Below are positions 31,571 to 51,374 of a stretch of 64,000 bases of DNA, in pieces (the stretch's first letter is position 1; each line of letters opens with the position of its first letter). Origin of the DNA: Ostreococcus lucimarinus (Eukaryota); NCBI GenBank assembly GCA_000092065.1, contig CP000597.1; one strand, 5' to 3'. The notes beneath the pieces were generated by a model. It was not told the origin of the DNA. It saw only the letters and a program-made list of their open reading frames with translations, and did not search any database. Position numbers and translations under genes: made by a program.

Positions 31571-31800
31571 TCGTTTCCGCTTCGTTCTGTTCGCGCATTC
31601 GATGTCATAAATATTTATTCATCATCTGTGATTTTTCCAGATTTTTTCTCCCCGTTTTCGTCGTCGAGCGCGTCCTCGCCGCGTCGCCGCGCGGCGTTGG
31701 CCGAATCGCCAGCGCAATTCCCAATTCTCAATCGATCGTCATCATTCACCGCCGCGCGACCTCCATCGCGCCCGTCGCGCCCATCGCGCGAAGCGTGGCG

Positions 31801-33744
31801 ATGCGATTCACGAGGAATAAATCCTCCGCCGCCGACGCGTCGTCGTCGACGCAGAGCGATGAGAATTCGACGGCGATCAACGTCGGGCCGGTGCGCCTGA
31901 AACTCCCGATGAAGATTCGATTCGGAAACGACGCCGCCGAGCTCGAACGACGGCGACAGGCGAACAGCAACCCGCTGGCGAAGATTCGAGGCTCGATGGC
32001 GGGCGTCGGACGGTCGATCAAGGGCGTGGGGAATCTGCAGCAGACGCTCATGACGAACATGATGGTGAAGGTCATCGCGGGGGTGTCGGGAACGCTGAGC
32101 GGGTTGTTGCTCGCGGGATTGGCGTATAAGGTGGTGGGAGGATATCAAGATGAGATAAAAGAGGCGAGGCGGGAGGTGCAGCGGCAACACCAGGAGAGGA
32201 AGGCGCGATTGGCGCAGGTGAGACGATTGCTGAGCGGACCGCTGCGGGCGGCGGCGAAAGATTTGAGAAACAGATTGGAGTTTATATTAAAGGTGCCGCC
32301 GAGACGTTCGAGCGGGGAACCGCCGAAGATTCGGGCGAATTATTTTGCGGCGCATTATCCCGATAATCCCAACGAAGCGGTGAATTCGACATTGTTTCGG
32401 TTGTGTCGGTATTTGCACTGGGTCGAGCAGTTTCAACGCGGGGTGCAGTTGGAAGGCGTGAGCGAGCAGGACACGTGGCAGTTCGCGTTGGATCAACAGC
32501 TTGATCGCGTGGCGATGGAGTTGGAGGTGAGCAACGAGCGCTACGACGCAACTGTACCGACAGAGCGTTTGACTGAGGTTTTCGCGCTCATACACGTTCG
32601 TGAGGTGGAGAAGGAGAAGCGAGTCGAGGGCGACGGCGCTGACGACGGCGGAGACGAAGGTGAAAAGTTAGCGAGTAAACGGTCTATTTTTCGCCGAATC
32701 GATTCCTCATTGAATGAGAAAACGACGGCAATGGAACCTTTAGAGGCTGCGGATTCGGCACCGAAGCGTCGCGTCGGACTCCTCAGCGCAGAGCCTCAGG
32801 AACGTCTCAGTCGATTTCCGATGCGCTTGTTTCGCGACACGCAAGTCGCACTGGCGGAGGTTTTTGGTAAGCTCCACACACTTGAATCCGGCGCTGGTCA
32901 GCCTCAACATGAAGGTAAGGTAAACCCGCACATGTTGTACACAGAGTTCGTCATGAAACTCGAAGAGGCGCAAATGCTCTACGAGCGCACCGTGGAAGAA
33001 CAAGCCTCCGAAGGTCTCGTTGATGCAGCCACAGTCTTGGTCGCGCAGCAAGAAAATCTCCAAGCCGATCCGTGGTTTAGATGGATGCTTCCGCTGCAGC
33101 TTCAAATTCGACGCTTGGCCATGCTACAGTCCCAGACGTCCAAGCTGTTAACGAGGAAGGAGGCTCGCGAACTCCTCGCCGCGAGGGCACGTTTGCGCGG
33201 CGTCCTCGACGGCTTGAACGGTTTACTTGACGTGCTCGACAGACGATTGGACGATCCGTTGTTCAACAAGCCCAAACACAATTTAAAGCAAAAGCACTTG
33301 GCGACGGCTAAAATCGCAACGAAGAAGGTAAAGTTGGAGGCGTTGAAGCGCGAAAAGTCACTGGCGCGATGGAACAAGTTGAAACAAGCGATCCCTTACG
33401 TCGCAAAGTATCGCCGCCTTCCACCTCCACCTGCGAGCAAGAGATATATCCGTTTAGTGACAGGAGATGAGTTACTGGCGTTCGTTCGACGGTATAAAGC
33501 GAAAGCCGTGGCGGGCGTCGTCTCTGCGGTGAGCACCGCCGTCGTGAGCACTGTCATCTCGAAAGTTGTCCAGCATCAAAACAAGCGGCCAAAAGCGGTT
33601 GAAATCGTGAAAACCGAGAGCGAAAGCGCTGAAAGCGAAGGCACGACTAAGGAGAAAAAGACGAACGATGAAGCAATCGAAGGTGAATTCGCACCGCCCA
33701 CGAAGACGCGTCCTAGACTTCGCAATAGTGTGAAAGTCAAGTGA
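31801..33744 (+). CDS. Hypothetical membrane-anchored coiled-coil protein
   Basis: ORF with one predicted TM (VIAGVSGTLSGLLLAGLAYKVV) and long helical/charged segments. Starts at MRFTRNK. No recognised family. Confidence 0.35.
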   Translation: MRFTRNKSSAADASSSTQSDENSTAINVGPVRLKLPMKIRFGNDAAELERRRQANSNPLAKIRGSMAGVGRSIKGVGNLQQTLMTNMMVKVIAGVSGTLSGLLLAGLAYKVVGGYQDEIKEARREVQRQHQERKARLAQVRRLLSGPLRAAAKDLRNRLEFILKVPPRRSSGEPPKIRANYFAAHYPDNPNEAVNSTLFRLCRYLHWVEQFQRGVQLEGVSEQDTWQFALDQQLDRVAMELEVSNERYDATVPTERLTEVFALIHVREVEKEKRVEGDGADDGGDEGEKLASKRSIFRRIDSSLNEKTTAMEPLEAADSAPKRRVGLLSAEPQERLSRFPMRLFRDTQVALAEVFGKLHTLESGAGQPQHEGKVNPHMLYTEFVMKLEEAQMLYERTVEEQASEGLVDAATVLVAQQENLQADPWFRWMLPLQLQIRRLAMLQSQTSKLLTRKEARELLAARARLRGVLDGLNGLLDVLDRRLDDPLFNKPKHNLKQKHLATAKIATKKVKLEALKREKSLARWNKLKQAIPYVAKYRRLPPPPASKRYIRLVTGDELLAFVRRYKAKAVAGVVSAVSTAVVSTVISKVVQHQNKRPKAVEIVKTESESAESEGTTKEKKTNDEAIEGEFAPPTKTRPRLRNSVKVK

Positions 33745-33781: not shown

Positions 33782-33990
33782 TAAAATCGTAAAGTCTTTG
33801 TCGCTCGTTTTCATCCTCCTTTAAGTTCTTCTAAAGTCTTCTTATTCGCAATCTTGGTCGCTCTGTTAATGGCTCCCGCGGCGTAGTATAAAATCGTAAA
33901 GTCTTTGTCGCTCGTTTTCATCCTCCTTTAAGTTCTTCTAAAGTCTTCTTATTCGCAATCTTGGTCGCTCTGTTAATGGCTCCCGCGGCG
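33782..33990. repeat. Perfect ~105-bp tandem duplication (x2) of the last 25 codons plus proximal 3'UTR of the EF-hand gene
   Basis: taaaatcgtaaagtctttgtcgctcgttttcatcctcctttaagttcttctaaagtcttcttattcgcaatcttggtcgctctgttaatggctcccgcggcgtagta occurs twice head to tail. The second copy encodes YYAAGAINRATKIANKKTLEELKGG*. Confidence 0.8.
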
Positions 33991-36362
33991 TAGTACCACT
34001 CGGCCCACTGTATGACGCCGTCGCCGTTCAAATCAGCCGCTTTGGCAATTTTCTGAACGGTCGCGTTGTGAGAGTCCCACAACTTGGCACCCGGAACGAG
34101 GGTTTCGATGAACATATCAATCGTCTTCGCGAACTGCTCTTGATTGAGGTAGGGGAACGGAAACTTTTCATCCGGATTGGACGCGTTGGCTTCAAACAAC
34201 GCGAAGACCTCTTTGTCGAAATCGATTGCAACCGCCGACCTTGTCTCCGCAGAACCTCCAGCGTTCAAACCAGTGCGAGAGCCGATGGCGAACACATCTT
34301 GCGCGAAAGCTTCGATCGCTGAAACGAGTGATTCGTTCAATGCATCCGTAACCGCCGGCCCTGCAGATTCCATCACAGTCGCTTCGGCTCTTCTACTCAA
34401 ACCCGTGTTGAGTCGATGACCGACGACGGTCACCTCAAAATCAGAAGCTACTTGAGCGACGAAAGCAAGAACAAAAGCGTAAACGTTGCCCATGATCTCT
34501 TGAACCGAAGGGATGTCAGCAAAGTCCTTGGTGATCTCCCTCAACGCTCGCGCGTCCGGACGGAAGCGGCTGAGGTCCTTGACGTCGCGCTTCGGCGCTT
34601 GGCGCACCAGCATTCGGATTCTTCGCCCGAGCATGTCGAGCTCAAAATCGGACAACACTGTAGATAAAATATCCACTATGAGTTCAAAACAGTTAATGTA
34701 CAGCAAACGCTCAATGTTATCGGGAATAGCCTTGACGTTGTACATGGGATCGCGAAGGAGGTAGTCGACAAATTCCGAAATCGCCTCTCGAGTCTGCTTT
34801 TGTGCCTTTTTTCTCGCAGCTCTGCTCGGGTCTTCATCACCGTCGATGCTCACACCCAAAATTTGACGTGCCTCCGAGGCTATGTTGCTAAAGTCGCCTC
34901 TACGAATTTCGTTCCCCATTTGCTGCAGGAGGTCGCGGGCGCTGGGTGTCTTCTTCGCGGCGTCGCCTTCGTCGAATGTCAAGGCGTCGTCGTCGAACGA
35001 CGCTGACACGTTTGCTCCGCTCGACGGACTGAGCACACGCATAGAAATGTTGAAACCCAAGTTACTCAACACGGGCTCTTTTCCTATCTCACCGAACAAG
35101 CCGGTGAGGAGGTTGATGTACGTGTCGCGCTCGATTCGTCGGGGAAGAAACACTGACGAGATGGCCATCGCTCGAGTGTCCATATATTCATCGACGCACA
35201 CTTCGATAAGTTGCTTCACCGCGCGCTGCGTCTCCAAACGATCCTCGTCGGAAAAGGAGATGTTTGCAAACGCCTCTCGAGTATCGTCGTCGTAAGGCTC
35301 TAACGCAAACTCCACGGTGAATCCTTTAATCTTTGCCTCCATCGTGAGCGCCTCGGATAACATACCCACCGCAACCTTGGCGACGTTTTCTTGGAGATGC
35401 GGGAACAGATTTGTCGGTGGCGGGGCTTTGAGCTCTTCGCGCGCAATCTTGCGGAGCGTTTGATTCGACAGATTCGGCACGATGTCTAAGTAGCCGTCGC
35501 CGCTCGCGACGAGCTTAGTCCTTCGCCCTTCCGCCATGCCATCCTCTTCGCTCGACACTTCAAAGACGAATTCCCGGTCGAAAAGTTGCAACTTGAACGT
35601 TTTTAACGTATCTTCGAACACGGTCCATCCCGTGAGCGCGCCGTTCGTGTAGAGCTTCCTTTCGAGCGGCCCGGGTAACAAGACGGGAATCCCGCTCGTT
35701 TCGCCGACGACGTCGCCGATAAACTTTGCGAGCTCCTGCTCCTTGATACCACTCTTTTCCGGAACGTGTCTGGCGTCCAGATAATCGCTCATGATCAGAG
35801 GATGCCCCAAAACGCTCGCTCCGACGAGGTTCTGTCGTAAGTTCTTCATCGCCGACGCGTACGCCGCCTTGCAAACCTCGCGATACACCTCGCTCTCCGC
35901 GAACTCCGGAACGAACGGAATATCGTACGCATCGTTAATAATCTTCGCGTAACGATCCAAAACCTTCGCCTCCGCGGATTTCTTCTTCCCTCTCGACGCC
36001 CTGGCCAGCGCCACCGCGGCGGCCCCTCCCGCGACCGCGACGCCCGCGCCCGCCGCCGCGCTCGCCCCCGCCCCGCGCGTCCCCTCCCGCGCTCGCGCTT
36101 CCGCCGCCGTCGACACCGACGCCACCATCTTCGTCCCATCGCGCGCGCGCGCCGGTCGCAATCCCTCCATCGCGTCCTTCGCCGTCCTCTTCGCGCCCTC
36201 GTCCGTCTTCTTCGCGTTCGCGTTCGCGTTCGCGTTCGCGTTCGCGCGTCCCGCGCCCCGCGCCGGTCGCCCTCGCCGATCGCGCGTCCGTCCGACCCGC
36301 GCGCGCGTCGTCGACCCGCGTCCGCCGGTCGTCGCGCGCGCGCGAGACGCTCGCGTCGCCAT
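33918..36362 (-). CDS. Hypothetical protein with C-terminal EF-hand
   Basis: AADLNGDGVIQWAEW is an EF-hand loop (DxNxDGxI). (GCGTTC)n near the N-terminus encodes NANANANANA. The rest is unclassified. Confidence 0.4.
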   Translation of the reverse strand: MATRASRARATTGGRGSTTRARVGRTRDRRGRPARGAGRANANANANANAKKTDEGAKRTAKDAMEGLRPARARDGTKMVASVSTAAEARAREGTRGAGASAAAGAGVAVAGGAAAVALARASRGKKKSAEAKVLDRYAKIINDAYDIPFVPEFAESEVYREVCKAAYASAMKNLRQNLVGASVLGHPLIMSDYLDARHVPEKSGIKEQELAKFIGDVVGETSGIPVLLPGPLERKLYTNGALTGWTVFEDTLKTFKLQLFDREFVFEVSSEEDGMAEGRRTKLVASGDGYLDIVPNLSNQTLRKIAREELKAPPPTNLFPHLQENVAKVAVGMLSEALTMEAKIKGFTVEFALEPYDDDTREAFANISFSDEDRLETQRAVKQLIEVCVDEYMDTRAMAISSVFLPRRIERDTYINLLTGLFGEIGKEPVLSNLGFNISMRVLSPSSGANVSASFDDDALTFDEGDAAKKTPSARDLLQQMGNEIRRGDFSNIASEARQILGVSIDGDEDPSRAARKKAQKQTREAISEFVDYLLRDPMYNVKAIPDNIERLLYINCFELIVDILSTVLSDFELDMLGRRIRMLVRQAPKRDVKDLSRFRPDARALREITKDFADIPSVQEIMGNVYAFVLAFVAQVASDFEVTVVGHRLNTGLSRRAEATVMESAGPAVTDALNESLVSAIEAFAQDVFAIGSRTGLNAGGSAETRSAVAIDFDKEVFALFEANASNPDEKFPFPYLNQEQFAKTIDMFIETLVPGAKLWDSHNATVQKIAKAADLNGDGVIQWAEWYYAAGAINRATKIANKKTLEELKGG

Positions 36363-39861: not shown

Positions 39862-40932
39862 CTACTCGGAGACGGCGCCGTCTTCGTCTTCGTCTTCGTC
39901 TTCGTCTTCGCCGTCTTCGACTCGATCGTCGCCGATTTTTACGCCGTGGCGCGATAAAATATCGATCGCGCACTCGGTCCATATTTGTTTTTTGTCGCCG
40001 TCGCTCACGAAGGCGAACAAGACGTCGTCGACGAGCTCGAACTCGTCCTCCGCGGCGCGCGCGTAGGCGAGCGCGCCGTCGAAGATGACGTCCAGCGCGC
40101 TCGCGCGTCTTCGAGCGCGAGCCTCGTTCGCGGCGGTTTCGTCGCTCAACTCTCTCACGACGAGCTTATCTATGATTCTACGCGCCAGTTTTTCAAATTC
40201 CGCCTTCAACGACGCCTCGACGGCGAGTCGATGCGCCTCGTACAGCGTCCTCGCGCGCGCCTCCCCTCCGCGCAATCTCGACACGTCGTCCCGACCCATG
40301 GGATCGCCCACCAAGTCCCGTCGAAACGCTTCGTCGTACGAACGCGCGTACGTCTTCACGCGTTCGGCGCACAACGCCTGAAACGCCGCCTCCGCCTCGT
40401 CGTCCAACAATCGCTCCTTCCGAAACCGCGCCTCGCGTTCATCCCTTCGCCGTCGTTCGCTCGCCTCCGACTCCCTCGCCCTCAACGCTCGCGCCCTCCG
40501 CGCGTCCGCGTCCGCCTCGTCTTCCCCCCGCGCCGCCCTTCGTCTCTTCTCCCCCTCCCTCTTCTCCTCCGCCGCGCGTCGCCGCAGCGCGTCGAACGCC
40601 GCGCGTCGCTCCGAGTGCGTCTTCAGCGCGCGAAACCGCGCGTCGCGCCGCATCTTCATCAGCGCGCGCTCCCAGCGCGCGTCCGCGAGTCCGTCGCCCA
40701 GCCGCGCGCGCACCATCGCCTCGAACGCCTCGACGTCCGCGCGCTTTTCCGTCGTCGCGCGTCGCCACTGCGCGTCGAAATTCGACGATTCGTCGTCGCG
40801 CGTCCCGTCGGTCGCGTCGTCGTCGTACGCGTCCGGGTCGAGGACGACGCCCGCGGCGTCGGCCGCCGTCGCCATCGCCGCGGCGCGGAGTGGCGCGCGT
40901 CGCCGCCTCGTCACTGACACCCATACCCACAC
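39862..40932 (-). CDS. FF-domain-like helical protein (PRP40/TCERG1-like C-terminal region)
   Basis: Repeated blocks of the form F..L...........W......l..D.RF..L (FDAQWRRATTEKRADVEAFEAMVRARLGD...DARWERALMKMRRDARFRAL) and an acidic (GAAGAC)n tail. Weak call; it may be the terminal exon of a larger gene. Confidence 0.3.
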   Translation of the reverse strand: MWVWVSVTRRRRAPLRAAAMATAADAAGVVLDPDAYDDDATDGTRDDESSNFDAQWRRATTEKRADVEAFEAMVRARLGDGLADARWERALMKMRRDARFRALKTHSERRAAFDALRRRAAEEKREGEKRRRAARGEDEADADARRARALRARESEASERRRRDEREARFRKERLLDDEAEAAFQALCAERVKTYARSYDEAFRRDLVGDPMGRDDVSRLRGGEARARTLYEAHRLAVEASLKAEFEKLARRIIDKLVVRELSDETAANEARARRRASALDVIFDGALAYARAAEDEFELVDDVLFAFVSDGDKKQIWTECAIDILSRHGVKIGDDRVEDGEDEDEDEDEDGAVSE

Positions 40933-41119
40933 GTCCGAACACTCTCGATTTATTTATCGGCCCAACATCAAAAAAGCGTCGCTGGATCACGTACGCCGGT
41001 GCGCGCGAACGCGATGAAGGATTCAGGTCAACTCGCTTTTCCCGCGCGCGCGCACACGACGACGCGCGGCGATGTCGCCGCCCGACGCGCGCGCGGGCGC
41101 GCGCCTGCGCGTCGCCACC

Positions 41120-43618
41120 ATGTTCACCGGCGCCGGCGCGATCGACTACGGGTGCGTCGCGCGCGACGCGCGACGGCGCGACGGCGCGGGAAACGCGCGA
41201 AACGCAAAACCGAACGCCGAACGAACGCGAACGACGACGACGACGGATTCGACGCGCGACGACGACGACGACGACGCGCGACGACGCGAGATCGGGACGA
41301 CAAGGGGAGGATGGCGCGCGAAGACGCGAAGGCGCGCGCGACGGGAGCCCCGGGAGGACGAACGCGCGACTGACGAGACGCGAATTCGGGACGCGCGCGC
41401 GACCAGGCTGACGCGGGCGGGGCACGAGGTGACGCTGCAGTGCGAACGCGACGAGCGCGCGCGGGCGGTGCTGGACGCGCGATTTCAGGGCGTGCGACGG
41501 GCGAGGGAAGCGAGCGAGATCGAGGCGCTGCCGAGGGACGTGGACGTGCTGGTGTGCGGATTGATGACGAGGGAGTACGAGGGGTCGTGGCGAGAGTCGT
41601 GGACGAGAGACGGCGCGGCGGGGGCGCTGAAACACGCGCTGAGGCTGGGGGCGAGCGCGCGCGTGCCGTGGTTGGTGATCGAAGCGAGAGGGAAGATATT
41701 AGATCGTGGAGTCGATGGGAGCGAGGCGCCGTTGATTCATGAGTTTGTGAGCGAGCTGGAGCGAGCGGGGTACGCGTGGGCGCATCGCACGGTGGCGGCG
41801 GCGGCGTTCGGGGTGCCGGATGTCGCCGCGCGGGTGTTGCTCGTCGCCAGTAGATGCGGGGATCCGAGAGATGTGTTATTGACAGAAGACGCGGGGGCGT
41901 TGAAAGTCGATGCGAGGGATCCCGCGGATGAGCACACGTTTGTGTTTAATCGGCACCCCGAACGAGGGTTGTGCGCGTACGCCGACGTGTGCGAAGGATT
42001 TCATCCCGAGCCTGAGGCGTGCATGCTCACCGCCGCGGGTGGTTTGATGCCGCTCACCGTGCATGACGCTGAAAGATTGCAAGGATTGCCTCCGGGATGG
42101 ACGATGACGACGAGACCGAGCGTTCAAGGAAGTCAAGGGGAGGAGCTCACGGCGCGTTGGGACGCTTTGGCGAAGACGTACGGATGCGTCCCAAGTTCAT
42201 ATTGGCTGGGAACTCGGTTAGCGGACCCGTATGCTTTGAAATTTTCTGCCGATGCGGTTCCATTTAGAGAGTCTGTGCCGCACGCTTGGCCGGGGGCGGC
42301 GTACAACGTTGGACACGGGCGTGCGAGCGCCTTGTGCTCGCCGTTTGTCCGTGAAATCACGGAGTTGCCGTGTCTCGGCACGTTTATTTCCACGTCCTTT
42401 TTCGAAGGCGGTCCGCTGGTGCCGAAAGAGACCGCCGTGGCGTGCGCGCGCGTGCTTAGAGAGTCTGGCTGGGAGGTCCCTCCCCAGCTAGAGGCTTTGG
42501 AAAACGGCGAGGGAGAGATCGCCGTCGTCGAGCCGCGGGTGAAGAACGAACAGGCGCCTGCGGTCGAGCCACTGACGATAGCGACTCCGGCGGCACGGGC
42601 GCAGACCTCTCGCTACGATGAGTTTGTTTCAGCGCCACCGGCTTTGGTCGAACGCACGTTGCCTTTGATAAAGACGAAGAGCGGACATTTAATCGTCGAC
42701 CAAGACGAGGTGAAACGTTCGTCCAATTTTCCCATCGACATCGAGGCGAAGCGGTACAAGAGAAGCATCACGCCATCGTCGGCGGATATCGAGCCTGGAT
42801 CGCCAGGATCAACTCCGGGAACCATGACGTTCATCGCCGGCGTCGGTTTAGCTGCGCCAAGACGAAACCAGCTCGTTTGGGCCAAGCTCCCAGGTCATCC
42901 ATTTTGGCCGGGATTGCGAGCGGATTTGGACAAGGACTTCATCCCAGCGGATGCTCTCGCGATGGCGAGAGAAAACGAAGTACTCGTCGTGTTCTTTGGA
43001 GAAAATTCATTCGGTTGGCTGCGGGCGGAGCATTGCTTAGATTTTACCGAGCACTACGCATCGAAGAGTCGGGATCCGGCGAGGAACAAGGCGCGCTTCC
43101 AAGCGGCGGTGAAGCAAGCGAACGAGGAGCTGCAAATACGAGAGACGTTGCACGAGCGCGATAGATTACGTAAAATGGCGACGCAAAGTACTGCGCATAA
43201 GTTCCGTTCGCGCGGTGGCTCACCCATGCCCGAATTGAAGGGTTGTACGTGCAAGTCGTGCACGAGCATCTCCGCCGACGGTTCGGAATCGCCCAAGTGC
43301 ATACGTGTAGAAGCCGCCGAGAAGGCTAGTCGAGGTCACACAGGCGCCAAGCTTACGATTCAAGGTAGAACTATCATCGGTAAGCAAATTTTGGTGTTTT
43401 GGCCTCTCGACCGAGCGTCATATCCGGGTAAAATAGTCGATTACGATCCCGTCGAGCTTAGACATTGCGTCGAGTATGCCGAAGACGGCGTTAAAGAATT
43501 CTTGTCGCTGTGGAAGGAAGATGTAACATTACCGCCGGGTGAAAGACTCGGCCCGACTCTTCCAGAAGCAGATGAAGCTGGTGCTGATTTGTTGCTGGGA
43601 CTCACGGCGAGAGGATAA
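41120..43618 (+). CDS. C5-DNA-methyltransferase-like domain (degenerate catalytic motifs) + PWWP + Tudor-like domain; probable intron 41152..41406
   Basis: Kozak gccaccATG at 41120. MFTGAGAIDYG matches MTase motif I (FxGxGG). Splicing from GTGCGT at 41152 to the AG at 41406 joins IDYG-G-LTRAGHEVTLQCERDERARAV, the expected motif I-II spacing. Motif IV reads DVLVCGLMTRE instead of GGPPCQGFS (no PC dipeptide). Motif VI reads LVIEARG instead of ENV. Motif VIII-like: FGVPDVAARVLLVASR. PWWP: LVWAKLPGHPFWPG. C-terminal ILVFWPLDRASYPGKIVDYDPVELRHCVEYAEDGVKEFLSL is Tudor/chromo-barrel-like. Confidence 0.55.
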   Translation: MFTGAGAIDYGCVARDARRRDGAGNARNAKPNAERTRTTTTTDSTRDDDDDDARRREIGTTRGGWRAKTRRRARREPREDERATDETRIRDARATRLTRAGHEVTLQCERDERARAVLDARFQGVRRAREASEIEALPRDVDVLVCGLMTREYEGSWRESWTRDGAAGALKHALRLGASARVPWLVIEARGKILDRGVDGSEAPLIHEFVSELERAGYAWAHRTVAAAAFGVPDVAARVLLVASRCGDPRDVLLTEDAGALKVDARDPADEHTFVFNRHPERGLCAYADVCEGFHPEPEACMLTAAGGLMPLTVHDAERLQGLPPGWTMTTRPSVQGSQGEELTARWDALAKTYGCVPSSYWLGTRLADPYALKFSADAVPFRESVPHAWPGAAYNVGHGRASALCSPFVREITELPCLGTFISTSFFEGGPLVPKETAVACARVLRESGWEVPPQLEALENGEGEIAVVEPRVKNEQAPAVEPLTIATPAARAQTSRYDEFVSAPPALVERTLPLIKTKSGHLIVDQDEVKRSSNFPIDIEAKRYKRSITPSSADIEPGSPGSTPGTMTFIAGVGLAAPRRNQLVWAKLPGHPFWPGLRADLDKDFIPADALAMARENEVLVVFFGENSFGWLRAEHCLDFTEHYASKSRDPARNKARFQAAVKQANEELQIRETLHERDRLRKMATQSTAHKFRSRGGSPMPELKGCTCKSCTSISADGSESPKCIRVEAAEKASRGHTGAKLTIQGRTIIGKQILVFWPLDRASYPGKIVDYDPVELRHCVEYAEDGVKEFLSLWKEDVTLPPGERLGPTLPEADEAGADLLLGLTARG

Positions 43619-43702: not shown

Positions 43703-45058
43703 CTAAGCTGACGCGGATTCGAAGGTATCGTATATCGAGTCGCTCGATTCGACGTGCTTGAGCGTTTCGTTTACTGTTGTGAAGTGCTCGATTTCGTCGC
43801 TCTGATCGAACGCGGCTGCGCGTTTGACGGAGCTCTCGCTCAATTCAAATGTGTCCAATCGAGAAAGAAACGACGGTGACAAAGAGGTATCGTTCGTCGA
43901 TGGCGACACGATATCATCGGAGACGTGATTCAAGTACGATCGCGTCGCCTTCTGTACGTCCGCTGTGGCTCGCGTCACGCGATCCATGGCATCTATCATC
44001 ACTTTGGCCATCGCGCGACCCTCCTCCGTGGAGACGTCGACAGAGTTGAAAGCCACCATGTTCTCGGGCCTGAGAATCGATGCATTCATAATTTCAGCCA
44101 TATTCTTGCGCATGTCAATAAGCTCGTCTTCGTACTCGCGCGTCACTCGCATTCGCTCCTCGTGCTCAGCCACGAGCTGCTCGCTCAAGTCCCGAATCTT
44201 TGTCTCGTACAAGCGCGTTGACCTCGGCGATGTTGCGCCGCGAAGTCGCTCGATTTCCCTTGCCCGCTCCTCGCTAATCTCATTGATCTTCTCTAATTCC
44301 CATCGAAGTTCTGTAATAGTTTCCCAATCATCGATCGTCATCGTCGCCGGCCGCCCGTCGATCGGCTCGTTCGACTTGCGCTTCTGCTTGGTTTCTCTCG
44401 CGTTTGGCTCGCGCTTCTGCTCAATTTCACTCGCGCTCGCCAAACTCGCTCGACTCGCCTTTCTGCTCGATTTCTTCGCCGCCGTCTCCATCTCCCGTTG
44501 CGCTAGTCGCACCGCGCGCGCGCGCGTCTCCTCGCTCTGACAATACGCCACCGCCCCGGGTCCCAACTTTCTCGCAAACGAAATCGCCGTCGCCGCGCCG
44601 CTCGCCGCATTCGCTCGCACTTCGCACGTCCAATACATCACCGCCAACGCATCAAACGTCGCCTGAAACTCCCCTCGCTCGACACCATCGACCGATATCG
44701 CATTTGCCGGCACCCGCTCTCTCGCTAAAATCCCTCGCAGCGTCTGAAACGGGTGTTTCATCGCCGCGGCGCCGCCGCGCGTCGACGCGCTCGTCCCCGC
44801 TCGCGACGTCCCCGTCAACGCCTCGAACGATTCCGGCCACGCGCGCGCGGCGCACGCCAACGCTCCGACACTACGTTTTAGATCACTCCACACCAGCGCG
44901 CTCGTATCGCTCTCGCCCCCACGCGTCGCGCGCACGGCGTCGACGCTTCGCCGCGCGAACTCGAGCAGTTCAGATTTCCCAACCTCAATCCCCGTCTCCG
45001 TCGTCCGCGCGCGCGTCGACGCGCTGTTCGACGCGCCGTTCGATGCGACGTCGCGCAT
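43703..45058 (-). CDS. Hypothetical coiled-coil protein
   Basis: 451-aa ORF with a heptad-rich charged central region (ELRWELEKINEISEERAREIERLRG). No recognised domain. Confidence 0.35.
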   Translation of the reverse strand: MRDVASNGASNSASTRARTTETGIEVGKSELLEFARRSVDAVRATRGGESDTSALVWSDLKRSVGALACAARAWPESFEALTGTSRAGTSASTRGGAAAMKHPFQTLRGILARERVPANAISVDGVERGEFQATFDALAVMYWTCEVRANAASGAATAISFARKLGPGAVAYCQSEETRARAVRLAQREMETAAKKSSRKASRASLASASEIEQKREPNARETKQKRKSNEPIDGRPATMTIDDWETITELRWELEKINEISEERAREIERLRGATSPRSTRLYETKIRDLSEQLVAEHEERMRVTREYEDELIDMRKNMAEIMNASILRPENMVAFNSVDVSTEEGRAMAKVMIDAMDRVTRATADVQKATRSYLNHVSDDIVSPSTNDTSLSPSFLSRLDTFELSESSVKRAAAFDQSDEIEHFTTVNETLKHVESSDSIYDTFESASA

Positions 45059-45275: not shown

Positions 45276-48200
45276 ATGGAGTACGTCGACGCGTCAACGC
45301 TGCGAAAACTGTCGACGTCGGGTGACATCATCATCGTCGACGCGAGCTGGGCGATCGCGAACGACGTCGAGCGCGCGCGCGCGGCGCACGAGAGCGAGCG
45401 CATCCCGAACGCGACGTTTTATGATCACGACGAGGTGTGCGACCTGTCGTCGCCGCTGCCGCAGGCGTTCCCGCCGCGGGAAGCGTTCGCGCGAGGCGTC
45501 GGCGGCGGACTCGGGGCGACGAAGACGCGAGACGTGGCGATATACGCGAAAAACGGCGCGTCTTGCGCGGCGGAGGCGTGTGCGTTCGCGTTCTTGGAAT
45601 ATGGACATCGAGGACGGGTGATGGTGCTCAAGGGAGGGATGGAGGCGTGGAAGGCGGAAGGCTACGAGACGGAGGTCGGGGCGGAGACGATGCGCGAGCG
45701 GGCGACGGTGGAGTACGACGAAGACGGATCGAACGGAACGCGCGAGGGGAAGAAATCGGGATTCGTCGACGCGAAAGATTTGTTGACGAACTTGAGCACG
45801 CAGCGGTTGCAAGTGCTGGATTGCCGACAGTCGGAGGTGTTCGCGGGAGGGGCGAGAGACGCGGCGTACGTTCGGATTCAGGATCGAGCGATTCAGTTCG
45901 AGGGCTTCCGCGAAGGGCACATTCCGGGGGCGAAGAATTTACCGTACACGCGGTTGTTCGACGTCGCGGACGAAAACTTGCGAGAAATATTCGAGGGCGC
46001 GGGGTTGGACCTGTCCATGCCCGTGGCCGTGGTCGGTTCGGGGGGCGTCGACGCGGCGCCGATGGTGGCGTCAGCGCTCACGCGCGCCGGGTGCGCCGAC
46101 GCCGTGGTGCTAAAGAACGGTATGTGTGCGTGGTGCACGGCGCAAGGGAGCTCGTATCCGATGTCCATCGCTAGCACTTCTCCGCACGCTTCGCACAACG
46201 AAAAGCGCCTGATCGTTTGGGCGGTGACTCGATCGCGCGGCACCGCGCTCGAACGCTCGTTCTCTATGCACTCCGAGGCGATGGTCATGCACGAGTTACT
46301 CACGGAGCCGTGCTTGAAGGAGAATAATCCGGAAAATTACGCCAAGATTGTCAGTGGACAATCTGAACATCATGTCGCGAGCAGTGGATGCAGCTATGCG
46401 ACGATGTTAGAGGTGATGACGGCGGATTACTCCGCGCAAGGACGTCCATTCTTCTTCTCCAAAGAGCTGTCGTGTTACTTTGACTTGAAGCAAATGAAGT
46501 CGAGCTGGTTAAAACGGTTCACGCACGTGGTGTTGATTCGACAACCGACGGAAACGATAGAGTCATTTTATCGCGTCTCCATTGAACACAAGGAAGGGAG
46601 CTGCTATTATGATCCATCTGAGGCTGGATTTGCGGAAGCTTTTGGTATCGTAAACGCGTTGAAGCGTATCAATGCCAAGGTTATGGTCGTCGACGCTGAC
46701 GCGGATTTGCTGTCGCGACCAGAGGAGACGCTCCAAGAGATGTGTTCGCTGGCAAACGTGAACTTTGAGAGTTCGATGTTGTCATGGAAGCCCGCAGAGT
46801 TGTCAACGTGGATCAAATTTCGCGGTTGGCACGACGATGCGGCGAGATCGAGCGAGTTCAAAGCTGTCGACAAGGCACCGATGCAAAACGTACCGCCGGA
46901 ACTCTGCGTCGATGCGGCGAAGCAACAACCGTATTACGACGCCATAGGGTGGGAGCGCAAAGAAACTTCCAAGCGTTGGCCGTTCTTACGCCAGCTCACG
47001 AATCCGACGCATCGGTTCTCCGTCGTCGTGTGCGCATCGGATGAAGGCGCTATGGATATGTTCCCTCGTCTTGCCGCCGCGCGTCTGAGCGGCGTCAACT
47101 TGTACGAGTTCAAGCCGAGCGAAGTTGATCAGGCGATGAATAAATGCCCGTATATTTTCGACGACCCGATCGTTCTAGTGGGCGCACACGGACCCACGCT
47201 GCACATGGCCGAGGCACTGCGCGAGCGTGCGCAGAAGGACGGAACTTTGTGCATCGTACGCATAGTTCTCGTCGACGCTTCGGCGCATCGCGTTCGACCC
47301 GAAGGATTCGAGCACAGCTGGGTCCCAGAAGATTCGCTCAAGGATCAAACCAGCATGGACGAAGTTTTACAGAGTATTTTAGTCGACATCGAAACGGCAC
47401 AAAGCAAAAGTGCGAAGGAGATGGCGGATGTGAACGCGTTAGCCTCGACGACGACGTCGGCGGCGACGCACTGGCGCTCGGGTTTGGCGACGGCGTTGCA
47501 AGACGCTCGCTCCGACAAACCTTGCGTTACAGATGCGACGAGTACGTACACGATGAAAGAAGTGTACTCGCGTGCGTATCACGTCGCAGATATGCTCACC
47601 GAACGCGGTGCGCTGAACTCTCGTGTGGGTTTGTTTGTGCAAGCCTCCGCGGCGTCGGTGTGGTGCGCCATGGGTTCACTCTTGTGTGAATCTGTGTTTT
47701 GCGAAATCCCCGCGTGGTATCGCGACACCGACCTCGAACGCGTGTTGCGTTTGAACGAGTCGAAAGTCATAATAACTTCTCGTGATCTCGTGCAGTTCGT
47801 ACCCACCGCGTACAGAGACTTGGTCGTGGTCGTCGAGGACATGGAGTACGACGTCGACTTGAGCGGCGAGCTTCATCCGGCGCTGACGCGTCCTGACACT
47901 CCCGATGCCCCCGGGTTCTCCGTACTCACCAGTGGCACTACTGGTGTGAGTAAAATTCTGTGCTGTCCACAATCCGCGCTGACGGACTCGCAATCGGTCA
48001 TTGGGCCACACATGCGTGGCGACGATGTCATGGGGAGCTTTTGGGTCTATTATTACTTCTTCATTCCGCTCCTCGCTGGTCGCACGCTGAGCGTCATCCC
48101 GAACGATTTCTTCCTCAAGCCCCGAGAGTTGATTTCGTATGTGCGAAGTCAAAAAATGACCATGCTTTACCTCAGTCCGAGTATCCTGGAGAGCTGTTTG

Positions 48201-51200
48201 TTGCACTGCACGCCGCAAGAGTTCTCCGAAGGGATGCAAGACGTGCACACAATTTTATTGACCGGTGAACGCGTGCGAAGAGAGACTCGTATGCTTCTCG
48301 CCGAGCGTCTCACCCGTACGCGTTTGATTGACGTGTACAGCACGAACGAAACGGGTGATTTGGCGATATCTGATTACGGTGGAGCGTTCTTCCTGCGTGA
48401 GGGCACGCAAGCGCGCGTGTTGACGGATGACGGCAAGCCAGCTGTTCGCGGCACCGTCGGCCAGCTTCACGTTAAAAAGAGTGGTTTGCTCGTTGGCTTC
48501 TACACGGATAACGGTTACGCGAAGATCGAAAGCGAGTGGTATCCAACTGGCGATCTCGTTCGTTGGTTAGGTCGCAACAGGTTGACTTTTGAATCTCGTC
48601 AAAAGTCGGCATACGTCAAGATTCGTGGCTTCAAGGTTTCGCCGGTCATGGTACAAGACGTCATGCTCAAGATGCCAGTGATTAAACAGGCCATCGTGAG
48701 CACGATCGGACAGTCTGACATTGACCAGCAACTCGTCGCTGCTATCTCCTTCAACAACGGTGCGCGAGCGAAGGAGAGCGAATTGCGGGCACACATGGCA
48801 GCGCACGTGCCGCACTACATGATTCCGTCGACGTTTTACGACCTCGGCAACAAAGTGTCCACAGCTACCTCTGGTAAAGTGGTCAAGCTTGATGTCGATA
48901 GGCTGGACAAAATCACCGATAGTAACGAAGTGCAACTGACTACAAAGCAAAATGAGGTCGTGGAGGTGTGGCGCCAAGTGTTAGATCAACCGGAGAAGAA
49001 CTTCGCGGCGACGGAGAGCTTTTTCGACTACGGCGGAAGCTTGAAATTTGTTGAGCTTGCGGCGGCACTTTCGAAGAAATGGGGGGTGAGTTTGACGGTT
49101 CCCGAAGTCATCGCCAAGCCGACGCTGGCTGAGATGGCCCTACTTATGGAAGATTATAAAAACGCCAAGTTTGAGCCCGAGGTCGAAGTCGCAAAGTATG
49201 ACTTTTCCGAGTTCAAGCGAGCGCCAAAGAAGAATACTGCGGCGGGCAAGAAGAATATTCTCCTTACCGGCGCTACTGGTTTTCTTGGTGCGTACTTGCT
49301 TCAAGAACTCGCCGCAAGCGATGAAATTGATCAGATTTACGCTATCGTGCGCGCAAAAGACAAGTTTGCGGCGCAAAATCGCGTGCTCGATGTCTTCCGT
49401 AAGCGCGGGCTCACGTTTACCGATCAAATAACGCAAAAGACAACGTTCATGTGTGGTGACATGTCAATGCCGTTGTACGACATACCCGAAGCCACGCTCG
49501 CGCCAGTTTTGGAAGTGATTGACGTTGTCATCAGCGGTGGCGCGGAAGTCAATATGGTGAAGTCTTATTCAGCGTTAGAAAAGGTAAACGTCGGAGGAAC
49601 GTTCAACGGGCTCGAGATCGCGTCGCGCGCCGGCGCTAGACACGTTCTCATTTCCACGCAGTATCCGCTTCCGGGTGAAGTTTCAACGGGATACCGACGA
49701 AGTAAAGAGGTCGCGGAGATGCTATGCGAGCGCGCGCAGAAAGAAGTTGGCGTTGAGTCGGCCGTTTTATTGTTTGGTGACATCGGTATTTCTCGTGCCG
49801 TCGGTTCGCTCGCGCCCGACGATGACTACATCGTCATCTTCCTCCGCGCCTGCCTCGCGACAGGTTTCTTCCCACGTACCGAGTGGGCTGTTAGTATCTT
49901 GTGCGTCGATGATTGCGTGAAGATGCTCACGTCAATCTCATTATCCGGCCAAGTCGATCGTTATGCGTTTGACGGCGTCGCGCGTGAAGTAAAGGGTAAA
50001 CTGATGCCGTTTTCTCAACTTTACGAATGGCTCTCCAAGGAGTACGCGTTGCAGCTGTGCAGCTACGATGGCTGGCTCAATGCAGTTAAGGCTGGCGCCG
50101 CCGAAGGCAACACGATCCTTCAGCGCGCGCTCCTGACGATTGATTCCATGGAAGTCGAACTCAGAGCGGAGGGTGAGCACTTCAACTCGCAGGCGGCGTC
50201 AGATGCGCTCTTCTCCGTGGACGAAGCGTGGGGTAAGAACCTCGTCGGTGCGCTAATTCTCGAACTCTACAGCGAACTTCAAAATGACGACAAAGACACC
50301 ACCATCGGCTTCGCCGCGTTGGCGCAAGGCGAAGATTTGGTTCCGTTCAAGTATCGCCTCCCAGACATGACCCCGACGTCTGTCGAGGTGAAGGTCGAGT
50401 ACTGCGGCTTGTGCGGAAGTGATGATCACTTGATCGTGGGTGACTATGGTGAATATGCGGTGTGGCCGCAAGTTTGCGGACACGAAGTCGTGGGTACGGT
50501 CACCCAAGTTGGCACGGCGGTGACGACGCTAAAAGCCGGTCAACGCGTTGGCGTCGGCTGGCAGAGCTCGTCTTGCCACGATTGCGAGTGGTGCGCGCGA
50601 GGCGATGAGCAGCTGTGCTCTAGTGTCGGTTGTACATGCTGCGAAGGTAACAAAGGTGGTTTCGCCGATCGCATGCGCTTAAACGACTCGCAATTCTGCT
50701 ACAAAATCCCAGACGCGCTGTCTTCCGCGGAAGTCGCGCCGTTGCTATGCGGTGGCCAAACCGTTTGGACGCCTTTGAACGAGCAAACGAAGTCTAGCGA
50801 TCGCGTCGGCATTCTCGGCCTCGGTGGACTCGGTCACATGGCCATCAAGTTCGCCAAGGCGCTCGGTCGAGAAGTCACCGCGATTTCGTCTTCGGCGTCG
50901 AAGCGCGCCGACGCCCTGTCGCACGGCGCGTCGCGCTTTTTGGTGCACACCAACCAAGAAGAGATGGATGCCGCCGCCTCATCGCTCGACTTCATCCTAG
51001 TCACCATCGCCACGAATAAAGAGGTGGACTTCGCGAAGTTTTTCCCCTTGTTACGCCCGCGTGGGACGATTTGTTTCGTCGGCATGTGCCCTCCCATCCA
51101 AGCCGACGTCTTCACTCTCGGCTTCACCATGAACAACATCACAACGAGTAACACCGGGGGCAAAAAGGACATGGTTCAAATGCTCGAATTCTGCGCCCGA

Positions 51201-51374
51201 CACAAGATCGGCGCCTCCGTCGCCGTGAGTCCGCTCAGCGAGATCAACACCGCCATCACGGCTTTGCGCACGGGCGAATCCCACTTCCGACACGTCCTCG
51301 TCAACGACGTCTCGAGCGGTAGTCAACACCGTCGCATGGCCAGCGCCTTCGGCAGCGGCTTCCCTTCCCGTTAA
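45276..51374 (+). CDS. Intronless 2032-aa megaenzyme: 2x rhodanese-like – PAPS-type sulfotransferase – AMP-binding adenylation – carrier protein – thioester reductase (SDR) – Zn-dependent alcohol dehydrogenase (MDR)
   Basis: Rhodanese folds at about aa 1-290 (IIIVDASW...; second active-site loop reads VAVVGSGGVDAAP, so the catalytic Cys is missing). Sulfotransferase: LIVWAVTRSRGTALERSF (5'-PSB) and VVLIRQPTETIESFY (3'-PB). Adenylation: FSVLTSGTTGVSKILCC (A3), YSTNETG (A5), YPTGDLVRW (A7), VKIRGFKV (A8), GKVVKLDVDRL (A10 Lys). Carrier: FFDYGGSLKFVELAAAL (Ser attachment). Reductase: ILLTGATGFLGAYLLQEL. ADH: GLCGSDDHLIVGDYG...CGHEVVGTVTQVG and ILGLGGLGHMAIKFAKALG. Confidence 0.85.
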   Translation: MEYVDASTLRKLSTSGDIIIVDASWAIANDVERARAAHESERIPNATFYDHDEVCDLSSPLPQAFPPREAFARGVGGGLGATKTRDVAIYAKNGASCAAEACAFAFLEYGHRGRVMVLKGGMEAWKAEGYETEVGAETMRERATVEYDEDGSNGTREGKKSGFVDAKDLLTNLSTQRLQVLDCRQSEVFAGGARDAAYVRIQDRAIQFEGFREGHIPGAKNLPYTRLFDVADENLREIFEGAGLDLSMPVAVVGSGGVDAAPMVASALTRAGCADAVVLKNGMCAWCTAQGSSYPMSIASTSPHASHNEKRLIVWAVTRSRGTALERSFSMHSEAMVMHELLTEPCLKENNPENYAKIVSGQSEHHVASSGCSYATMLEVMTADYSAQGRPFFFSKELSCYFDLKQMKSSWLKRFTHVVLIRQPTETIESFYRVSIEHKEGSCYYDPSEAGFAEAFGIVNALKRINAKVMVVDADADLLSRPEETLQEMCSLANVNFESSMLSWKPAELSTWIKFRGWHDDAARSSEFKAVDKAPMQNVPPELCVDAAKQQPYYDAIGWERKETSKRWPFLRQLTNPTHRFSVVVCASDEGAMDMFPRLAAARLSGVNLYEFKPSEVDQAMNKCPYIFDDPIVLVGAHGPTLHMAEALRERAQKDGTLCIVRIVLVDASAHRVRPEGFEHSWVPEDSLKDQTSMDEVLQSILVDIETAQSKSAKEMADVNALASTTTSAATHWRSGLATALQDARSDKPCVTDATSTYTMKEVYSRAYHVADMLTERGALNSRVGLFVQASAASVWCAMGSLLCESVFCEIPAWYRDTDLERVLRLNESKVIITSRDLVQFVPTAYRDLVVVVEDMEYDVDLSGELHPALTRPDTPDAPGFSVLTSGTTGVSKILCCPQSALTDSQSVIGPHMRGDDVMGSFWVYYYFFIPLLAGRTLSVIPNDFFLKPRELISYVRSQKMTMLYLSPSILESCLLHCTPQEFSEGMQDVHTILLTGERVRRETRMLLAERLTRTRLIDVYSTNETGDLAISDYGGAFFLREGTQARVLTDDGKPAVRGTVGQLHVKKSGLLVGFYTDNGYAKIESEWYPTGDLVRWLGRNRLTFESRQKSAYVKIRGFKVSPVMVQDVMLKMPVIKQAIVSTIGQSDIDQQLVAAISFNNGARAKESELRAHMAAHVPHYMIPSTFYDLGNKVSTATSGKVVKLDVDRLDKITDSNEVQLTTKQNEVVEVWRQVLDQPEKNFAATESFFDYGGSLKFVELAAALSKKWGVSLTVPEVIAKPTLAEMALLMEDYKNAKFEPEVEVAKYDFSEFKRAPKKNTAAGKKNILLTGATGFLGAYLLQELAASDEIDQIYAIVRAKDKFAAQNRVLDVFRKRGLTFTDQITQKTTFMCGDMSMPLYDIPEATLAPVLEVIDVVISGGAEVNMVKSYSALEKVNVGGTFNGLEIASRAGARHVLISTQYPLPGEVSTGYRRSKEVAEMLCERAQKEVGVESAVLLFGDIGISRAVGSLAPDDDYIVIFLRACLATGFFPRTEWAVSILCVDDCVKMLTSISLSGQVDRYAFDGVAREVKGKLMPFSQLYEWLSKEYALQLCSYDGWLNAVKAGAAEGNTILQRALLTIDSMEVELRAEGEHFNSQAASDALFSVDEAWGKNLVGALILELYSELQNDDKDTTIGFAALAQGEDLVPFKYRLPDMTPTSVEVKVEYCGLCGSDDHLIVGDYGEYAVWPQVCGHEVVGTVTQVGTAVTTLKAGQRVGVGWQSSSCHDCEWCARGDEQLCSSVGCTCCEGNKGGFADRMRLNDSQFCYKIPDALSSAEVAPLLCGGQTVWTPLNEQTKSSDRVGILGLGGLGHMAIKFAKALGREVTAISSSASKRADALSHGASRFLVHTNQEEMDAAASSLDFILVTIATNKEVDFAKFFPLLRPRGTICFVGMCPPIQADVFTLGFTMNNITTSNTGGKKDMVQMLEFCARHKIGASVAVSPLSEINTAITALRTGESHFRHVLVNDVSSGSQHRRMASAFGSGFPSR

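Follow-up and report, generated by a model that had tools for sequence, protein, structure and literature searches.

An uninterrupted open reading frame (ORF) of 848 codons lies at 41072..43618 (plus strand) in a 64,000-nucleotide stretch of the Ostreococcus lucimarinus genome (contig CP000597.1, assembly GCA_000092065.1; the whole stretch is called the window below). It raises two questions: whether a protein that resembles a C5 cytosine methyltransferase in its N-terminal part and carries chromatin-reader domains in its C-terminal part could itself methylate DNA, and, if not, what such a protein would be kept for. By exact look-up, the 848-residue translation is RefSeq XP_001422099.1, GenBank ABP00416.1 and UniProt A4S9N8 of O. 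lucimarinus CCE9901; these records name it 'predicted protein' or 'PWWP domain-containing protein'. We found that this is a two-exon nuclear gene whose public model is the unspliced ORF. The spliced product has 763 residues; it joins a degenerate methylase domain to two putative methyl-lysine readers and, by analogy with known proteins, would most likely act as a non-catalytic, chromatin-reading subunit.

The reading frame contains an intron that is translated in the reference annotation

A reading of the window made from its letters alone (the sequence-only reading) had described the gene as encoding a probably inactive DNMT-like domain fused to PWWP and Tudor-like domains, with a hidden in-frame intron of about 255 bp. 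All the strings quoted there are found in the ORF at 41072..43618 (plus strand): MFTGAGAIDYG at residues 17-27, CGLMTREYEGS at 162-172, IEARG at 203-207 and LVWAKLPGHPFWPG at 601-614. The start that it gave, 41120, has to be moved upstream: the ORF begins at 41072 (MSPPDARAGARLRVAT...) instead. The 'RLRVAT' strand of motif I, which is kept in all orthologues, is upstream of Met17, and exon 1 with its own ATG is conserved in the homologous loci L001, L003, L005 and L014.

The splice sites lie exactly where they had been predicted, with the donor at 41152 and the acceptor ending at 41406. The boundaries read gg/GTGCGT ... CTGAC at -37 ... ACCAG/g (slashes mark the exon ends), and the 255 nucleotides between them make 85 codons with no in-frame stop. 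Removal of 41152-41406 joins ...MFTGAGAIDYG to LTRAGHEVTLQCE.... The segment has 72% GC and 3.5% T (9 T in 255 nucleotides); two of the three plus-strand frames are free of stops, and the third has one. When shuffled, the intron was stop-free in 52% of cases, which, multiplied by one third for an in-frame length, gives a chance of about 17% that it could be read through. The reference intron is readable because it is extremely T-poor, and so free of stops, and because its length is a multiple of three. Being in frame and stop-free in the reference haplotype, it adds 85 spurious residues to ORF-based and RefSeq models: as the sequence-only reading had warned for annotation of this kind, XP_001422099.1 translates it between motif I and motif II. 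Three long spurious ORFs also run through the 5' end of the gene and the intron (40439-41635 on the minus strand; 40890-41411 and 40999-41373 on the plus strand). They show why ORF-based gene calling fails here on sequence that is poor in T and rich in GC.

An intron interrupts the same Gly codon in five Ostreococcus lineages (the window, L001, L003, L005 and L014), with ends of the form GT[GA]CG...[CT]AG. In the window it is 255 nucleotides long and can be read in frame without a stop. It measures 193 nucleotides in L001 and 346 in L003, with a frameshift and stops in both; 222 in L005, in frame with two stops; and 202 in L014, with a frameshift. The Micromonas-type homologues (...FSGCGVLDYGLTQAGHE...) and the orthologue of Bathycoccus prasinos (...FCGCGAFDFGLAQAGHE...) are contiguous across the splice point. 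The protein A0A7S0KK65 of Ostreococcus mediterraneus (P0176, 762 residues) joins the exons exactly (...MDYG/LTQAGHE..., ALTGAGAMDYGLTQAGHE). Compared with the genomic locus L014, it is 100% identical in exon 1 and 99.6% identical in exon 2, skips the 202-nucleotide intron exactly, and is collinear with exon 2, unbroken, over residues 24-762. This protein is probably transcript-derived, as judged from a sister entry in the same accession block that is labelled as an MMETSP transcript.

Eight haplotypes of O. lucimarinus, the window and seven metagenomic contigs, were then aligned. Exon 1 was 100% identical in all eight, and exon 2 varied at 3 of 2212 nucleotides, all three changes being synonymous, with no nonsynonymous change and no indel. 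Within the intron, 22 of 256 columns were variable, four of them indel columns; the intron was 255, 254 or 253 nucleotides long, and in half of the haplotypes (4/8) it carried a frameshift or a TAG and could not be read through. The variation was confined to intron positions 47-208, the first 46 and the last 47 nucleotides being invariant; splice signals may extend unusually far inward, or some other constraint may act on the intron ends. The middle of the intron (window positions 41198-41359) is a hotspot of single-nucleotide polymorphisms and 1-nucleotide indels among natural haplotypes (L007-L013, from TARA and coastal metagenomes).

The conserved position, the frame-breaking lengths or stops in four other lineages, the indels within the species, the O. 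mediterraneus protein with the exact junction and the intron-less relatives together establish that the proposed GC-rich intron is real: 41152-41406 is a phase-2 GT-AG intron that has been mistranslated in the reference annotation.

The methylase domain is degenerate at its catalytic motifs

In the unspliced ORF, the Pfam methylase family PF00145 matched below its threshold (17 bits, cutoff 22) and over motifs VI-VIII only. Removal of the intron raised the match to 35 bits (E=1.3e-8), and it then covered motifs I-III, a gain that is further evidence for splicing; once spliced, the protein does match a DNMT-family profile hidden Markov model, in keeping with the sequence-only reading. The translated intron pushes the methylase domain below the Pfam cutoff, and the protein is consequently labelled only 'PWWP domain-containing'. 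Spliced orthologues scored 41-54 bits over profile positions 2-166. Across the clade of homologues with degenerate motifs (the dead clade, see below), scores ranged from 17 to 54 bits, compared with 110-160 bits for stand-alone methylases that have both the Pro-Cys (PC) of motif IV and the ENV of motif VI.

With a profile of the clade's domain, a search of 1.84 billion representative proteins retrieved 3144 at E<=1e-3. Both PC and ENV are present in 103 of the best 150, and many of the best matches are stand-alone methylases of about 400 residues aligned over profile positions 1-350. Searching PDB sequences with dead-clade profiles gave only marginal matches to M.HaeIII (E=0.004-0.009, over motifs I-II and VIII), and the case for homology rests instead on Pfam, on the census of 1.84 billion proteins and on the active paralogues. 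A structure model was made on the unspliced 486-residue N-terminus. The top 33 PDB matches that Foldseek returned for this low-confidence model (predicted local distance difference test, pLDDT, 50) are all C5 methylases (M.HhaI, E=5.6e-5). Among the fold matches of the same low-confidence model are M.HhaI, M.HaeIII, DNMT2, MET1, ZMET2, DNMT5 and DNMT3A, as well as the DNMT3A2-DNMT3B3-nucleosome structure 6pa7. We take these matches as supporting evidence only.

We compared the domain motif by motif with the active relatives P0224, P0087, P0239 and P0253 (Table 1). Thr166 occupies the position of the catalytic Cys, E-A-R stands for ENV, motif VIII reads D-V-A-A-R and motif X reads G-C; the loss of the Pro-Cys dipeptide and the replacement of ENV by IEARG had been recognised from the letters and are borne out by the alignment. 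No cysteine is conserved anywhere in the motif IV loop across the clade, according to the alignment and a motif scan. The clade has instead [ED]-[GW]-S-W-R-E-S-W at motif IV (E-G-S-W-R-E-S-W in the window, E-T-G-W-R-E-S-W in Bathycoccus), and the Bathycoccus loop holds a 21-residue insert. Motif VI reads E-[AG]-[RSP] across the clade and V-D-C in Bathycoccus. Other Ostreococcus orthologues have Tyr, Leu or Arg in place of the motif I Phe, the adenine-stacking residue, a drift which suggests that the cofactor pocket is relaxed as well; the Asp position of motif III varies in the clade and is E or H. The degenerate pattern is common to every member of the clade. In the neighbouring clades PC, ENV and QRRRR are intact, and GN is partly so.

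A different frame or a hidden exon restoring PC(Q) was considered and rejected. Exon 2 is collinear with P0176 from residue 24, and no frame and no orthologue supplies a PC motif. Judged by its motifs, the domain, which makes up about the first 390 residues of the spliced protein, is a C5-methylase homologue that has lost all classes of residues on which the C5 mechanism relies, the nucleophilic cysteine among them, and the protein is almost certainly incapable of cytosine methylation itself. No other part of the protein is as well conserved as the dead domain, which has 53% identity to the Micromonas type, compared with 46% for the PWWP domain and 42% for the Tudor domain; it therefore has some function.

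The degenerate proteins form one clade beside paralogues with canonical motifs

In a neighbour-joining tree of trimmed sequences, the sequences with degenerate motifs form one group with 100% bootstrap support. Its branches are the Ostreococcus type, the Micromonas type and Bathycoccus prasinos (CAL6438946.1), and at the 50%-identity level it comprises about 10 of the top 150 representatives. In this tree the rooting of the clade is poorly supported (62%), and the long branch probably plays a part in this; its placement was taken from a published maximum-likelihood tree (Funabiki et al. 2023, eLife, PMC10538959). There, XP_001422099, represented only by residues 113-298 (encoded after the retained intron), is paired with Micromonas XP_003064391 on a long branch (99.7/100), and the pair is sister (96.2/97) to other chlorophyte DNMT6-like proteins. 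The same study lists XP_001422099 and XP_001417930 as 'Other DNMT6-like' in O. lucimarinus, beside the DNMT5 XP_001417393, and records no DNMT3 for this species. The words 'catalytically inactive' have 0 occurrences in its main text, and no mention of motif loss was found there (PMC10538959).

The same genome encodes a putatively active paralogue, of the kind that the sequence-only reading had suggested looking for: XP_001417930, with the canonical catalytic motifs FSGVGG and GFPCNDCS. The DNMT5 XP_001417393 is present as well. Within the window itself, tblastn with P0029, P0031 and P0013 matched this gene alone. In O. mediterraneus, the active paralogue P0224 comes from a transcriptome, and the dead copy P0176 is apparently from the same data set. 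The paralogues with canonical motifs are built from a methylase, a cysteine cluster and a PTM/DIR17-type Tudor domain, in most cases with a PWWP-like domain between methylase and cluster. The family extends to Tetradesmus and Klebsormidium; no PWWP or Tudor domain was detected in the Klebsormidium member. The G-N of motif X is kept in P0087 and in the chlorophyte members outside the Mamiellales.

The sequence comparison indicates that the catalytic losses happened once, before Ostreococcus, the Micromonas-type algae and Bathycoccus diverged, and that purifying selection has maintained the gene ever since, next to paralogues that have the same architecture and canonical motifs.

The C-terminal half carries a PWWP and an RDM15-type Tudor domain

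The structure model of the C-terminal half is good inside the domains (pLDDT 80-92). The PWWP domain named in the sequence-only reading is confirmed by both a Pfam match (Table 1) and a fold match: the model superposes on the PWWP domains of HRP3, HDGF2 and LEDGF with a template-modelling score (TMt) of ~0.7 and a root-mean-square deviation (rmsd) of ~2 A (Foldseek). Alignment to NSD3 and NSD2 gives H609, W612 and F642 as the putative cage, with positions assigned by the cage numbering of NSD2.

The C-terminal domain, which had been called Tudor- or chromo-barrel-like, proved in the structure prediction to be a genuine Tudor domain closest to that of Arabidopsis RDM15/PDS5C. Against PDB 7DE9 chain A, the profile search gave E=2.4e-12 and Foldseek a TMt of 0.87, an rmsd of 1.2 A and 36% identity. 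RDM15 reads H3K4me1 with a cage of W616, Y623 and Y641 and the acids D643 and D645, the pair that coordinates the monomethyl-ammonium group, and uses E647 and Q654 for H3R2 (PMC8184781). W777, Y784 and Y802 of the window ORF align with the three cage residues, and D805 and E809 correspond to D643 and E647. The active paralogues keep Y-D-D-G-D at the acid positions. The Tudor domain of the window protein likely holds a methyl-lysine cage, as this alignment predicts; the mark and its methylation state cannot be named.

Between the two readers lies a nearly invariant cysteine cluster, in a region of low pLDDT, which is possibly a zinc knuckle. At this cluster, the sub-clade B paralogues (P0024, P0029 and P0060) have CGxCxxC and the others CxxCxxC. 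The C-G-x-C-x-x-C of sub-clade B resembles half a CXXC zinc finger. Within the dead clade, the C-terminal motif AGADLL[LM]GL is common to Ostreococcus and the Micromonas type, Bathycoccus has a related D-L-L-L-S-L at its end, and the alignment shows no such motif in the active paralogues; this acidic-leucine C-terminus may be a docking or interaction motif. A scan of the ORF with NCBIfam gave nothing useful.

Table 1. Features of the dead-DNMT gene (window coordinates; residue numbers are those of the unspliced ORF)
Feature	Coordinates	Strand	Description
Exon 1	41072..41151	+	From Met1 through codon position 2 of Gly27; encodes strand beta-1 and motif I (RLRVATMFTGAGAIDYG)
Intron, spliceosomal, phase 2	41152..41406	+	255 nt; GTGCGT...CTGAC (at -37)...CAG
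Exon 2	41407..43618	+	From codon position 3 of Gly27 through the stop codon (43616-43618); single exon
Degenerate C5 cytosine-methyltransferase-like domain	41102..42502	+	Residues 11-27 and 113-477, split by the intron
Motif I	41123..41140	+	FTGAGA vs FSGIGG in active relatives; F-x-G-x-G loop partly preserved
Motif II			Glu125, kept as in active relatives
Motif IV	41543..41602	+	DVLVCGLMTREYEGSWRESW; L-M-T166 for F-P-C; G-L-M-T-R-E-Y-E vs G-F-P-C-N-D-C-S
Motif VI	41666..41692	+	PWLVIEARG; V-I-E-A-R vs L-L-E-N-V
Motif VIII	41807..41851	+	FGVPDVAARVLLVAS; P-D-V-A-A-R-V vs P-Q/H-x-R-R-R-V; aligned to M.HaeIII YGVAQDRKRVFYIG
Motif IX/X	42062..42205	+	HDAERLQGLPPGWT ... YGCVP; G-C-V-P vs G-N-A-V, motif X Asn replaced by Cys
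PWWP domain (PFWP variant)	42869..43132	+	Residues 600-687; Pfam PF00855, E=2.9e-13, 50.6 bits (cutoff 25.6)
Conserved Cys cluster	43241..43300	+	G-C-x-C-x-x-C-(x12)-C; C725, C727, C730, C743, nearly invariant, between PWWP and Tudor
RDM15/PDS5C-type Tudor domain	43379..43525	+	Residues 770-818; putative cage W777, Y784, Y802, with D805 and E809
C-terminal motif AGADLL[LM]GL	43577..43603	+	Residues 836-844; G837, A838, L841 and L844 nearly invariant

Neighbouring genes

Just downstream, at 45276-51374 (plus strand), a single ORF encodes a 2032-residue multidomain enzyme with Rhodanese (two copies), Sulfotransfer_5, AMP-binding, PP-binding, NAD_binding_4 (reductase), ADH_N and ADH_zinc_N domains. 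It resembles an assembly line of the non-ribosomal peptide synthetase/carboxylate-reductase kind fused to sulfur-transfer domains, and it is syntenic in L001-L004. The divergent upstream neighbour (39862-40932, minus strand) encodes a 356-residue protein rich in Arg and Glu, in which a single FF domain matches weakly (23.9 bits). For this species, gene calls in metagenomes give either 337 or 356 residues, and the start codon is therefore uncertain. No Pfam match at E<=1e-3 was obtained for the ORFs at 43703-45058 (minus), 33918-36362 (minus), 31567-33744 (plus) and 29714-31570 (plus), of 451, 814, 725 and 618 residues, respectively. Every Ostreococcus locus examined has the 451-residue ORF in synteny beside the dead-DNMT gene.

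Discussion

Based on the published tree and the shared architecture, the window protein is a member of the chlorophyte DNMT6-like clade and not of DNMT3 or DRM. Chlorophyta DNMT6-like proteins (XP_001417930; O. mediterraneus A0A7S0KJG8) have the same domain order: the methylase is N-terminal and is followed, in most cases, by a PWWP-like domain, then by a Cys cluster and a Tudor domain of the PTM/DIR17 or RDM15 type. The active ones keep FSGIGG, GFPC[NVQ]D[CL]S, ENV and P[QH]xRRR, whereas the clade of the window protein has lost all of these. The gene and its family are already catalogued (PMC3457860; PMC10538959, as 'Chlorophyta DNMT6-like'). Alvarez-Venegas and Avramova (2012, PMC3457860) described two 'putative DNA methyltransferases' of O. 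tauri with a C-terminal PWWP domain, XP_003084095 and XP_003079195. These share the methylase-then-PWWP order, which was noted there as specific to Ostreococcus, Micromonas and Chlorella, and one of them is probably the O. tauri orthologue. Both were treated as putative enzymes, the catalytic motifs, the Tudor domain and the intron being outside that analysis (PMC3457860). In a full-text literature search we found no report of the clade's catalytic degeneracy, of its RDM15-type Tudor domain or of the intron retained in the reference model.

DNMT3L and DNMT3B3 are non-catalytic partners, and DNMT3B3 keeps a PWWP domain and contacts the nucleosome. The window protein is like them a relative (paralogue or isoform) of an active C5 methylase with its catalytic residues lost, and by analogy it may have a partner role too. 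The sequence-only reading had called it 'DNMT3L-style'. What stands of this is a dead paralogue beside an active one in the same genome; membership in DNMT3 does not, as the published tree places the protein among the DNMT6-like ones, and the comparison is an analogy only. Unlike DNMT3L, the window protein keeps its reader domains. Its readers lie C-terminal to the methylase, whereas those of DNMT3 are N-terminal (PMC3457860), and it has a Tudor domain in place of ADD; its origin is independent. The RDM15/PDS5C Tudor domain (7DE9), the best match to that of the window protein, shares with it the W, Y, Y cage and the acids Asp643 and Glu647, but Asp645, one of two acids that confer monomethyl specificity, is Val807 here, and the host is a DNMT relative instead of a cohesin cofactor. 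Arabidopsis DRM3 offers another likeness: it is a green-lineage DNMT paralogue whose catalytic motifs are mutated and which is still needed for normal methylation. DRM proteins differ from the window protein in having rearranged motifs and UBA domains and no PWWP or Tudor domain, and they belong to the DNMT3/DRM clade.

Taken as a whole, the data are in our judgement probably best explained by a spliced two-exon gene whose product combines a dead DNMT6-like domain with the role of a non-catalytic, chromatin-reading partner. In such a role, the PWWP and Tudor domains would dock the protein on nucleosomes marked by methyl-lysine, probably of the gene-body type (H3K36me and H3K4me, for example). 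Through its dead methylase fold, the protein would bind DNA, the active DNMT6-like paralogue (XP_001417930), or both, and cytosine methylation would as a result be targeted, stimulated or restrained, as it is by DNMT3L, DNMT3B3 and DRM3.

Several observations weigh against this explanation. Two degenerate junction patterns, compared with JGI metagenome and metatranscriptome contigs, gave 0 matches to a spliced complementary DNA (cDNA) of O. lucimarinus, an uninformative result, and the exact 763-residue spliced protein is absent from the protein collection by look-up. The N-terminal model is poor (mean pLDDT 50, Foldseek template-modelling scores of 0.2-0.3). In the putative PWWP cage, His stands at the first aromatic position, where Tyr or Phe is usual, and in the Tudor domain the position of RDM15 D645 is taken, after a one-residue insertion, by Val807, a residue that hardly varies within the clade. 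Most Mamiellales paralogues with canonical motifs (P0024-P0086, P0224) have G-L-A-V, G-R-A-V or G-L-A-C at motif X; because this motif is unusual, their catalytic activity is assumed.

Other explanations have to be set against a partner role in DNA methylation. The protein could be a chromatin reader or DNA-binding factor in its own right that works independently of methylation, its dead fold being re-used as a DNA-binding or scaffold module, for example in repair, cohesion or transcription. RDM15-type Tudor domains are indeed attached to repair and cohesin proteins in plants (PDS5C, MSH6), and the dead domain is highly conserved while residues of its S-adenosylmethionine pocket drift (motif I Phe to Y, L or R; motif III Asp to E or H). 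We regard this as unlikely, though worth keeping in mind, since the only genomes seen with the dead protein also carry active paralogues of the same domain order and DNMT5, and the dead C5-methylase paralogues considered here as precedents (DNMT3L, DNMT3B3 and DRM3) all act within a methylation pathway. It is considerably less probable that the protein is still an enzyme which relies on a different nucleophile or acts on a different substrate (RNA, or a different base or atom). The domain, which is strongly constrained, still has F/Y-x-G-x-G and Glu125; Glu204 is present in all but Bathycoccus (VDC); and DNMT2, a C5-methylase fold with a changed substrate, provides a precedent. To our knowledge, however, every C5 methyltransferase, DNMT2 included, needs the Cys of motif IV, and none is conserved in that loop across the clade; Bathycoccus has lost the Glu of ENV as well and has the 21-residue loop insert, and some Ostreococcus orthologues have Arg or Leu instead of the motif I Phe.

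The two explanations that deny either the intron or the function of the gene fare worse. If the 255 bases were coding, they would form an 85-residue low-complexity loop between motifs I and II with no splicing, as the open, in-frame segment in the reference and three further haplotypes would allow, and no cDNA of O. lucimarinus was retrieved. This is very improbable, because 4/8 haplotypes are frameshifted or carry TAG in the segment while the exons carry only synonymous variants, four other Ostreococcus lineages are unreadable there and the O. mediterraneus protein lacks the segment, and GT, the CTGAC branch point and AG are conserved with 46-47 invariant nucleotides at the flanks. Even harder to believe is a decaying pseudogene left by a DNMT duplication, for all its lost catalytic motifs and its long branch in both trees: the frame is intact in Ostreococcus, the Micromonas-type algae and Bathycoccus with many invariant residues, the ratio of nonsynonymous to synonymous changes in exon 2 is 0 to 3 over 2212 nucleotides in the eight haplotypes, the O. 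mediterraneus product is apparently transcript-derived, and clade motifs of the SWRESW type are conserved.

We return to the chromatin-reading partner. The Mamiellales have no DNMT1 and depend on DNMT5, an enzyme associated with dense methylation of nucleosome linkers; a reader-bearing dead DNMT is plausible as a targeting or boundary factor in this DNMT5 system. A more specific version, that the Mamiellales independently evolved a factor like DNMT3L or DNMT3B3 whose readers recognise gene-body marks and whose dead fold either recruits or holds back DNMT5 or the active DNMT6-like enzyme, is offered tentatively, as a possibility on which we would not yet rely.

For the annotation of these algae, very T-poor, GC-rich Ostreococcus introns have roughly a one-in-six chance of escaping ORF logic, and other gene models may therefore share the defect described here. 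XP_001422099 has been counted among the DNMT-type proteins of O. lucimarinus, yet its motifs indicate that it is almost certainly unable to methylate DNA. By analogy, it is a candidate for an independently evolved dead-DNMT partner; if that is true, it would be the third independent case of an 'inactive DNMT partner' after DNMT3L/DNMT3B3 and DRM3, and a testable candidate for linking histone marks to DNMT5 or DNMT6-like methylation in minimal genomes. A DNMT3L-like factor of the Mamiellales, if it is one, would help to set their unusual nucleosome-linker methylation pattern.

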